In this document: positions 29,753 to 32,502 of the stretch, in pieces | Position numbering within the stretch: the stretch's first letter is position 1 | Layout: every line of letters begins with the position of its first letter | Source of the DNA: an uncultured candidate division Zixibacteria bacterium | Lineage (GTDB): Bacteria; Zixibacteria; MSB-5A5; GN15; FEB-12 | Assembly: GCA_963735035.1 (NCBI GenBank) | Contig: CAVTJJ010000005.1 | Location: forward strand, 1-64,000 | Reading direction: 5' to 3' | DNA: 64,000 nucleotides | The notes under the pieces: generated by a model | The model's input: the letters and a program-made list of their open reading frames with translations, nothing else | Database searches by the model: none | Told to the model about the DNA's origin: nothing | Position numbers and translations under genes: made by a program

Positions 29753-30195
29753 TGATAGAAAGATATCGTGAACTGCTGGCAGGGTATGTCGACGGTGAAT
29801 TGACCGACGACGAACGACTCGATTTCGAGCGCGAACTGTCCCACTCCGCCGAGCTTCGCTCCGAGCTGCAGGAGTTCATGCAACTCAAAGAGGTGACCGA
29901 CGTGATGCGCTATGCCGACATCCCGGACCAAGTCTGGGATTCTTACTGGGAATCGATGTACAAAAAGACCGAACGGGGTCTGGGCTGGATTTTCTTTTCG
30001 GTCGGGGCGATTCTGGTGATTGCTTTCGGACTGTATCAGGCGTTTCATAAGTTGTTTACCGATCCGACCGCGCCGCTCTGGCTTCAGATCGGTCTGCCCC
30101 TGGCCACGCTGGGGCTGGCCATTCTACTGGTGTCGTACATCAGAGAGCGGATTTTCGCCTGGAGAAGAGAACGATATTCGGAGGTTGAGAAGTGA
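29749..30195 (+). CDS. Putative membrane anti-sigma factor
   Basis: LL.GY.DGEL...E...FE N-terminus, two TM helices, overlaps the sigma gene. Confidence 0.75.
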   Translation: MMIERYRELLAGYVDGELTDDERLDFERELSHSAELRSELQEFMQLKEVTDVMRYADIPDQVWDSYWESMYKKTERGLGWIFFSVGAILVIAFGLYQAFHKLFTDPTAPLWLQIGLPLATLGLAILLVSYIRERIFAWRRERYSEVEK

Positions 30196-30512
30196 TCATA
30201 ACCACATCGGAGAACATTGTCGGGAAGAGGATAGTCCGGACGATTGGGCTGGCCAAGGGGAACACGATTCGGACCCGTCACGTCGGGCAAGGTCTGGCAG
30301 CGTTTGTCCGGAGTCTGGTGGGTGGCGAGGTCACTAACTATACCAAGTTGCTGGCAGAAGCGCGTGAACAGGCGATTGACCGAATGGTCGAGGATGCGCG
30401 CGCGATGGGTGGGAACGCCGTGGTGATGTGTCGTTTCTCGACCGCTGAGATCATGCAAGGCGCCGCGGAGATTATTGCTTTCGGCACCGCGGTTGTGGTG
30501 GAGGAGGAGTAG
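30192..30512 (+). CDS. YbjQ/UPF0145 family protein
   Basis: IITT...I.G..I...G...G; GGE...Y..LL..AR..A..RM...A...G.NAV; AFGTAV. Confidence 0.9.
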   Translation: MIITTSENIVGKRIVRTIGLAKGNTIRTRHVGQGLAAFVRSLVGGEVTNYTKLLAEAREQAIDRMVEDARAMGGNAVVMCRFSTAEIMQGAAEIIAFGTAVVVEEE

Positions 30513-30539: not shown

Positions 30540-31214
30540 TCATTTTTCGGTGTCTTCCTTTGACTGCTGATCCACCCAAGTCTTGCCCTTCAATTCATCC
30601 AGCAACTGCTGTAATGATACTTTCGCTTGACCCGCCGCAGAAGGAACTAGCCAATCAAATTTCTCCATGGATGGATTTGCACTATCCGCAATCCCCATGA
30701 GTGTCGATAGAGACCCGCTGGTATGCTGAATCGTGGCCAGAGTCTTGGCATCAAACGCAGAGGGTATCGAGACGGTAACGCGTTGCTCGGACTTCGATGC
30801 CAACTCTTTGACCTGTCTTTCTAGGTTTGAAAGGTTCATCTGTAGATTCTCTTTCTCCTTCTTCAGCGACGCCATCTTCAGAGAATCCTGACTTCCCTGC
30901 TGCTGAGCCTCCTGAATCAGACACTCCAACTCTTCGACTCGATTATGGGCCCCCTTCAGCTGCTCTTTGAGGTGTTCAATGTACTCTTCAAGCTGCAACT
31001 TAACACTTTCAAAATACTCACGGATGCGCATCGGCGTCAATTCCCGAAGATTGTCAACCTGTTGATGGAGCGATGCTATCTGTGCGTCCTTAGCCTCGAC
31101 CAATTTCTCTTGTGCCTTCTGATGTTCTTTACCCCACCAGAGCTTTGCTGCCCAAGCCAGCGCTGCTGCGAGTGCACTTGCCAAGGCTGACAAGCCGTAG
31201 ATCCACTCTACCAT
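30540..31214 (-). CDS. Hypothetical protein: N-terminal TM helix and long coiled coil
   Basis: 224-aa ORF with Q/E/K/L-rich heptads; appears more AT-rich than neighbours. Confidence 0.65.
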   Translation of the reverse strand: MVEWIYGLSALASALAAALAWAAKLWWGKEHQKAQEKLVEAKDAQIASLHQQVDNLRELTPMRIREYFESVKLQLEEYIEHLKEQLKGAHNRVEELECLIQEAQQQGSQDSLKMASLKKEKENLQMNLSNLERQVKELASKSEQRVTVSIPSAFDAKTLATIQHTSGSLSTLMGIADSANPSMEKFDWLVPSAAGQAKVSLQQLLDELKGKTWVDQQSKEDTEK

Positions 31215-31390: not shown

Positions 31391-31420
31391 CTGTCTTGCC
31401 CCGCTTCAGGCGGGGCATCC
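31391..31420 (+). repeat. Left palindromic flank of the GIY-YIG gene
   Basis: CTGTCTTGCCCCGCTTCAGGCGGGGCATCC, 29/30 reverse complement of 31773-31802. Confidence 0.92.
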
Positions 31421-31426
31421 AGTCTG

Positions 31427-31711
31427 TCACGCGATCTCTGAATAGAGATCGCGCCATTGCGGATTGGACTCCTCTATGAGCCGTATCTTCCAGACGCGCT
31501 TCCATTTCTTCAGCCGCTGCTCGCGCCGGATTGCCTCGTACATGTCATTGAATACCTCGTAATGGACCAGCATGTGAACCTTATACCGTGAAGTGAAACC
31601 GTCAATGAAGTCGTTCCGGTGCTCATAAACGCGCCGCAAGAGGTCGTTCGTGACTCCAATATAGAGAGTGCCGTTTTTGGCACTAGCGAGGATGTAGACA
31701 AAGGCGGTCAT
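31427..31711 (-). CDS. Small stand-alone GIY-YIG nuclease
   Basis: FVYILAS..NGTLYIGVT.DL.RRV.EH...FT.RY.V..LVHYE...AI.RE..LKKW.R.WK..LIE..NP.W.DL. Confidence 0.93.
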   Translation of the reverse strand: MTAFVYILASAKNGTLYIGVTNDLLRRVYEHRNDFIDGFTSRYKVHMLVHYEVFNDMYEAIRREQRLKKWKRVWKIRLIEESNPQWRDLYSEIA

Positions 31712-31772
31712 GGAATATAGAGTAGGTGTATTCACTGACAGGGGCTGTCAGCGAATATTGTAATCTGAAGAT

Positions 31773-32111
31773 GGGTGCCCCGCCTGAAGCGGGGCAAGAC
31801 AGAGAGGGGAGCGGGGAAAGACAGAATTGGGGCGGCTTATCGGAAATTGGAGCGAGAGTGACACAATCAGTTGAGAATAGATTTCGGGGACCCGGGTGCC
31901 CCGCCTGAAGCGGGGCAAGACAGTGAGGGGAGCGGGGAAAGACAGAATTGGGGCGGCTTATCGGAAATTGGAGTGAGTGTGACACAATCAGTTGAGAATA
32001 GATTTCGGGGACCTGGGTGCCCCGCATGAAGCGGGGCAAGACAGAGGTGGGAAGCGGGGCAAGACAGAGGGGGAAGCGGGGCAAGACAGAGAAGGGGAGC
32101 GGGGCAGACAG
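31773..32111 (-). repeat. Right flank: three palindrome copies at 121-bp period plus a half-repeat ladder
   Basis: Copies start at 31773, 31894 and 32015; (GA)AGCGGGGCAAGACAG half units at about 32051, 32073 and 32097. Confidence 0.92.
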
Positions 32112-32298: not shown

Positions 32299-32502
32299 AT
32301 GACTACCAAACGTCTTTACAGATCAAGAAGCAGCCGGATGATCGCCGGCGTGTGCGGCGGAATCGCCGACTATTTCGAAGTCGATCCGACCATCATTCGC
32401 CTGGGCTGGGTTATCCTTATCCTGGCTTTTGGGACCGGCATCCTGGCTTATCTGCTGGCGCTGATTATTATACCCAACGAGCCGATCCAGCCGGCGCCGT
32501 AA
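32299..32502 (+). CDS. pspC: PspC domain protein
   Basis: KRLYRS...RMIAGVCGGIA.YF.VDPT.IRL; one TM helix. Confidence 0.9.
   Translation: MTTKRLYRSRSSRMIAGVCGGIADYFEVDPTIIRLGWVILILAFGTGILAYLLALIIIPNEPIQPAP

Follow-up and report, generated by a model that had tools for sequence, protein, structure and literature searches.

The closest described system is the Ssn family of small single-domain GIY-YIG nucleases, whose genes are flanked by Ssn-related hairpin motifs (SRMs; Chenal et al., Nat Commun 2025, PMC11893778). In the sections of that paper drawn on here, SsnA of N. meningitidis (94 aa, CAX49033.1) binds its hairpin solely as ssDNA and cuts a few bases 5' of the tag, ignoring the reverse strand, and residues Y6, Y17 and E64 are required for cutting. 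SsnA lowers the integration of NTS-bearing transforming DNA, and the discussion of the paper calls the NTS-ssnA-NTS arrangement IS-like and likens it to the IS200/REP-associated transposases. Criteria for assignment to Ssn include an SsnA BLAST match of E<1e-10 over 75% of its length and cd10448 as the top CDD match; the published SRM pattern captures both flanks in merely 42% of homologs. 'Zixibacteria' went unmentioned in 13/14 supplements of PMC11893778 searched. The initial annotation of the present locus had hinted that a GIY-YIG nuclease framed by palindromic repeats might be new; this hint fails, as both the Ssn family and the IS200/REP analogy appear in the published sections cited above.

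The second relevant system is that of the CGTC-tagged REPs (Di Nocera et al. 2013, PMC3733652), of which families 3-4 have a 9-bp stem and a 5-nt loop. That study, in the parts used here, found neither a RAYT gene with CGTC repeats on its flanks nor a dedicated enzyme.

The nuclease gene and its flanking hairpins

The window (the whole stretch of 64,000 nucleotides that was analysed) contains at 31427..31711 on the minus strand an open reading frame for a 94-aa GIY-YIG nuclease, P0001. The gene lies between inverted repeats at the coordinates originally proposed, and a profile search returned GIY-YIG (E 1e-15) as its sole Pfam domain. The protein falls under the 150-aa ceiling for small single-domain GIY-YIG proteins, its predicted structure has the GIY-YIG fold (pLDDT 83.7), and Y6, Y17 and E64 are present, being invariant and identically numbered in 9/9 aligned rows. 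P0001 is 59% identical to an NTS-flanked homolog in N. dentiae (E 5.7e-34, residues 3-93) and 67% identical to a homolog in Dehalogenimonas BL-DC-9. In the parts of PMC11893778 used here, N. dentiae is scored as ssnA-positive in Supplementary Data 4, in a different assembly, and Dehalogenimonas BL-DC-9 is among the 29 SRM-defining genomes. Judged by these two homologs and the three catalytic residues, P0001 belongs to the Ssn/SRM family. The initial annotation had pointed to SLX1-type enzymes, which cut branched or hairpin DNA; the relative that matters here is SsnA, which acts on ssDNA. The closest solved structures, UPF0213 and Slx1, are 27-29% identical to P0001 versus 56-59% for the Neisseria Ssn homologs.

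The genome carries four Ssn-like genes, one of them interrupted by an internal stop, and each is paired with its own hairpin type, present in 15-49 copies. Homologs P0002-P0004 are 81-90% identical to P0001 and were not among the matches of the metagenome scan, in which the best match was 69%. P0001-like genes (52-54% identity) were also found at three loci on viral contigs, and no phage carriage of the present hairpin variant was seen at these three loci. A more distant GIY-YIG gene at G000 C3:441862-442059 (L005), 35% identical to P0001, is flanked by repeats with a short GC-rich palindrome that look tRNA-like by eye and are of no SRM type.

The left tagged hairpin, of SRM type, lies at 31391..31421 on the plus strand (TGTC tag 31392-31395; stem 31397-31404/31410-31417; loop 31405-31409) and the right one, inverted, at 31772..31802 on the minus strand; the left CCA tail and the right tail both point toward the gene. 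The inverted repeats, originally given as 30 bp, were confirmed as arms of 31 nt that are 97% complementary, and the stop codon of the nuclease gene lies 6 nt from position 31420. Folded as ssDNA, each arm forms a stem of 8 bp closed by a loop of 5 nt (z -3.96 for one and -3.82 for the other, equalled by 0/200 shuffles); the loop and the outer TGTC tag stand as first described, and the stem, originally put at 7 bp, is one pair longer. On the upstream side of the gene the hairpin is reiterated on the minus strand, in two 121-bp tandem units (31773..32014) that are 97% identical and contain one full hairpin each, and in a third full hairpin followed by an array of 22-23-nt half-hairpin units (32013..32110). 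The extra full copies are at 31894-31923 and 32013-32044 and the half-hairpin units at 32051-32089. The half-hairpin units are cut at the loop, and the array is found on one side of the nuclease gene only.

Across the genome the hairpin repeat occurs in 49 copies at ≤3 mismatches; the shuffled genome contains 0, and the repeat is therefore not a product of chance. The strict published SRM pattern gave 64 matches in the genome and 0 in the window, since the flanking hairpins deviate from it at one position; they match when that position is relaxed, and a structure-based finder (tag, stem-loop, C after the stem) detects both arms. By the description in the parts of Di Nocera et al. 2013 used here, the sequence is that of a 9-bp-stem/5-nt-loop CGTC REP with its outer A-T pair broken.

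Coupling to the hairpin, insertion site and genome-wide copies

The initial annotation had asked whether homologs are flanked by inverted hairpins, and whether these co-vary with the protein tree. Inward-facing tagged hairpins surround the Ssn gene at 17/33 loci of the same order and at 43/70 metagenome loci (10/80 were left out because their flanks were too short), and outward pairs number 0 and 4, respectively. Control flanks of recA and WYL genes with both hairpins were 0/48, after 12/60 had been dropped as short, giving a pooled association of 60/103 Ssn loci versus 0/48 controls; among Neisseria-type loci the inward layout was found in 1/10. Hairpin class follows the protein clades: all rows of a 12-row clade (support 98) have the 9-bp-stem type and 5/6 rows of a second clade (support 97) have a long-loop type. 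These two clades come from a quick tree search over 93 columns that left 79/120 forks open, and only well-supported (starred) clades were used. The coupling of the Ssn gene to a tagged hairpin thus holds among homologs. Together with the published activity of Ssn, this makes recognition of the flanking hairpins by P0001, as the initial annotation proposed, a well-supported prediction.

The insertion site is marked by two conserved neighbours, a ybjQ-like gene on the left (30192..30512, plus strand) and a pspC-domain gene on the right (32299..32502, plus strand). The gap between them is ~1.8 kb here versus ~70 bp in congener G002 and ~170 bp in congener G001, and neither congener has the nuclease gene at the orthologous position. 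An empty site is thus present as regards the gene; the exact ends of the insertion are unalignable, because the congeners are merely 66-77% identical, and the block gained here also contains a 224-aa coiled-coil-like ORF (30540..31214, minus strand) that lies outside the hairpin pair and is absent at the site in both congeners. The ORF, which has a weak PIN_8 match below cut-off, is orphan-like, with homologs in 2/200 class genomes. Neither of the two fetched homolog loci has an Ssn gene beside it, leaving joint travel of the ORF and the nuclease unsupported.

The hairpin variant has expanded specifically in this genome, with 67 matches versus 0-2 in each of 60 relatives. Among 59 copies there is one inward pair within 3 kb, and it is the pair that frames the nuclease gene. 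Target-site duplications in these 59 copies showed no excess over permutation at ≥4 nt, and 3-nt duplications were in excess (22 versus 12.5). No transposition chemistry was found for the hairpin-nuclease unit. In the two sequencing runs with matches (shares 0.05-0.06), no joint was seen in the assembled contigs, which do not span the hairpin-gene unit. Several copies of the hairpin, at G000 C3:987064, C4:851350 and C5:82724, lack the usual tail and instead run into one common sequence of ≥50 nt, the start of which has 10 matches in the genome and which resembles the end of a larger repeated element.

Repeat counts were compared among relatives using a relaxed SRM pattern with one gap fixed and one position widened. 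The median excess of SRMs over control was 15 in the 31 relatives with Ssn versus 5 in the 29 without, and an excess of ≥25 was seen in 11/31 versus 0/29 genomes, kin among which are not independent. The excess was small in 20/31 of the Ssn-bearing relatives. The second half of the original proposal, that the nuclease spreads its palindromes, is supported by correlation alone (the empty site and the expansion). Both observations bear on what it is that spreads CGTC REPs, a point that had been left unsettled in 2013.

A recA-type promoter and a candidate regulator

Between the right hairpin and the ATG of the nuclease gene lies the sequence TGACA-N5-TGTCAG-N10-TA-N3-T. It comprises a palindromic box, CTGACA-N5-TGTCAG (31735..31751, minus strand), which is a predicted WYL-activator site common to the recA, comM/yifB and WYL-regulator promoters, and a predicted -10 hexamer, TA-N3-T (31719..31724, minus strand), 10 nt after the box. 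Since 7 nt separate the end of the hexamer from the ATG, the transcript is predicted to be leaderless. The half-site TGTCA in this box is identical to the commonest SRM tag (31392-31396). The box has 9 occurrences in the genome. Three of them are upstream of Ssn genes, of which there are four in all, and one is upstream of a RAYT gene; the others precede recA, yifB/comM, a DUF433 gene, an ORF resembling RNase H (weak matches to RVT_3 and RNase HI) and, in a tandem pair of WYL-type regulators, the second gene. The sites at G000 C3:167447, C4:653854 and C4:882488, before yifB/comM, the RNase H-like ORF and the DUF433 gene, point to further candidate members of a regulon.

The arrangement recurs upstream of recA in relatives. 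In genomes of the same family the box was exact in 20/30 and within ≤1 mismatch in 27/30, versus 0/30 for control spacings N3, N4, N6 and N7 and 0-1 for downstream flanks. In other families it was present at ≤1 mismatch in 10/10 genomes of f2 and f4 and in 0/10 of f3, in which the box-less recA sits inside an operon. In 31/36 training promoters a TA-N3-T hexamer is located 10 nt downstream of the box, and a scan of spacings placed 24/28 hexamers at spacer 10 and 0 at 6-9, 11 and 14; the hexamer of the genome's own recA is imperfect. A promoter matrix built from 36 recA promoters taken from relatives, with the present genome left out, ranked the nuclease promoter 6th genome-wide, and 1/1500 random windows exceeded its threshold. 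Upstream matches above threshold were found at 9/32 Ssn loci of the order and 0/75 metagenome Ssn loci. At held-out Ssn loci the figures were 7/19 upstream and 1/19 downstream (1/20 was dropped as short), and at held-out RAYT loci 10/29 upstream and 0 downstream. In these two sets of the order together, the box precedes 16/51 Ssn loci and is absent from 35/51, and in 5/9 loci examined it lies outside the hairpin pair. Eight of the 10 RAYT promoters (L389-L418; G000 C3:433819, L270) are at a near-equal distance from the HUH motif, and the ATG of the local RAYT gene is 5 nt after the hexamer position.

The box resembles sites of known DNA-damage activators, and together with its hexamer it has the PafBC geometry. 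In the parts of the literature used here, the PafBC motif is given as tGTCgg(N10)tA(N3)T (PMC8635444), the DdaA palindrome as CGWCA-N5-TGWCG (PMC12392091), and the WYL activator DdaA is described as also controlling RM and CRISPR defence genes (PMC12392091); DriD is a further WYL activator of the DNA-damage response (PMC12392091, PMC13010146). At G000 C4:1624924-1626651 (L269:425-2152) the genome encodes an HTH-WYL-WCX protein (C4:1624924-1625886) in tandem with a shorter HTH partner, with a recA-type box between the two genes; this pair is a candidate PafBC-like DNA-damage activator. The HTH-WYL-WCX gene is found in 51/61 genomes, and where it is adjacent to its partner the box lies between them in 7/8 loci. 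Exceptions to this association are G030, in which the WYL gene occurs without any match to the box, and three f3 genomes, in which the box is matched 8-11 times and no hit to the WYL protein was obtained. The lack of recA boxes in f3 parallels the loss of the WYL gene, a parallel for which operon structure and shared ancestry are confounders. It is likely that the HTH-WYL-WCX protein, as an ssDNA-sensing activator, reads the box. LexA is disfavoured as its reader, since lexA is present at a locus without the box at ≤1 mismatch. That gene (G000 C6:540250-540533, L314) has an upstream GTTC-N5-GAAC palindrome, which may be the LexA box of the lineage.

Expression of the nuclease is therefore predicted to follow DNA damage. 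The predicted promoter link of Ssn to a DNA-damage regulon appears to be unreported: we found no published description of it or of a WYL regulon in Zixibacteria, in a search that mostly covered papers available without subscription, and the parts of the main text of PMC11893778 used here contain no WYL or promoter analysis. The shared promoter names a condition, i.e. DNA damage and ssDNA, under which to seek Ssn and RAYT activity, and with its box it outlines, for an uncultured lineage, a DNA-damage regulon of WYL type, of which our literature search found no earlier description.

Proposed mechanism and comparison with known systems

The family features, layout, empty site, genome-specific expansion and shared promoter sequence, all of them observed, lead us to consider it probable that the locus is a hairpin-framed Ssn unit, absent in two congeners, whose nuclease nicks ssDNA 5' of TGTC and whose recA-type promoter is likely to be induced by damage. 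P0001 would nick ssDNA immediately 5' of the TGTC tag. As there is one hairpin per strand in the orientation that could be cut, the two nicks would lie immediately beyond the ends of the unit, one on either strand. GIY-YIG enzymes hydrolyse DNA with no covalent intermediate and leave free ends, and P0001 would thus be unable to join ends itself. Any role in spreading, of the whole unit or of the bare hairpin, would then depend on host recombination or repair, which would be consistent with the nuclease being induced together with RecA and ComM by a WYL activator that senses ssDNA.

The strongest rival is that the nuclease has a host function only, as an ssDNA restriction enzyme or recombination tuner, with the repeats multiplying by local duplication and gene conversion. 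This would agree with the limit that SsnA places on NTS-bearing transforming DNA (in the sections of PMC11893778 cited above), with the box common to recA and yifB/comM, with the control of RM and CRISPR defence genes by DdaA as described in the sources above, and with the 121-bp and 22-23-nt tandem duplications, which represent enzyme-free copying beside the gene. However, the gene is patchy (32/61 genomes) and its site is not conserved, one paralog has an internal stop, the four Ssn-like genes go with four different hairpin types, and the hairpin copies are mostly scattered across four contigs rather than in tandem. An exclusive host function is quite conceivable without being likely; a host-serving role, as in Neisseria transformation, is in any case compatible with mobility of the unit.

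Less probable, and in our judgement improbable, is that the hairpin is a passenger of mosaic repeats mobilised by RAYTs, the Ssn gene merely marking the point at which the variant entered. Pfam detects 6 RAYT genes in the genome and NCBIfam 7, located elsewhere with other repeats, and 37/59 hairpin copies lie ≤70 nt from motifs that flank these genes, versus 2.8% of random windows, which were not restricted to intergenic DNA. Those motifs, however, come from four or more unrelated families, a mixture to be expected if repeats simply collect in the same intergenic sites, and no hairpin lies closer than 4.9 kb to any of the RAYT-like genes (7 tblastn matches). RAYTs are moreover present in 57/61 genomes, yet the large SRM excess is confined to those with Ssn, and the parts of PMC3733652 used here report no CGTC-flanked RAYT gene. 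A chance landing of a repair-type UPF0213/SLX1-like gene between two common repeats, suggested by its closest solved structures, is refuted by the homolog-flank test and made very remote by the higher identity to the Neisseria homologs and the single inward pair.

Beyond the hairpin-framed, damage-induced unit favoured above, a wider proposal can be made more tentatively, and we think it rather unlikely to hold in full: Ssn enzymes may be the missing mobilisers of CGTC REPs, and in this order both selfish hairpin-cutting enzymes, Ssn and RAYT, may have come under a PafBC-like ssDNA-sensing activator, which would confine their production to times when ssDNA, RecA and ComM are available; the joining step, which a GIY-YIG enzyme lacks, would fall to host recombination.

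The layout of the locus has already been published, and what it adds to the Ssn system is one further specificity pair of nuclease and hairpin. P0001 is like SsnA in its 94 aa, single domain, Y6/Y17/E64, hairpin-framed gene and many genomic hairpin copies; it is unlike the Ssn/SRM set of the paper in having the 9-bp-stem/5-nt-loop variant, with a broken outer pair that the published pattern misses by one position, and in its host, which is of an uncultured lineage. The hairpin is like CGTC REP families 3-4, as described in the parts of PMC3733652 used here, in its TGTC tag variant, 5-nt loop and CCA tail, and unlike them in that its outer A-T pair is broken. The promoter is like that of PafBC in lying upstream of recA and in its GTC-N10-TA-N3-T spacing, present here at a nuclease gene; it is like that of DdaA, in the parts of PMC12392091 cited, in having a palindrome with a 5-nt spacer; and the genome, like the hosts of PafBC, DriD and DdaA, encodes an HTH-WYL-WCX protein. 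It differs from all three in combining the palindrome with the PafBC spacing, a combination known here from its sequence alone. From REPtrons the locus differs in that the Pfam search found GIY-YIG alone between the hairpins and no HUH/Y1 transposase, i.e. a hydrolase with no HUH/tyrosine motif and no covalent strand-transfer chemistry. It is nevertheless like REPtrons in that the enzyme gene is set between two inverted hairpins cognate to it, with non-coding copies of the hairpin dispersed in the genome, and like the RAYT loci of its order in having the same promoter, which is found at 10/29 of them.
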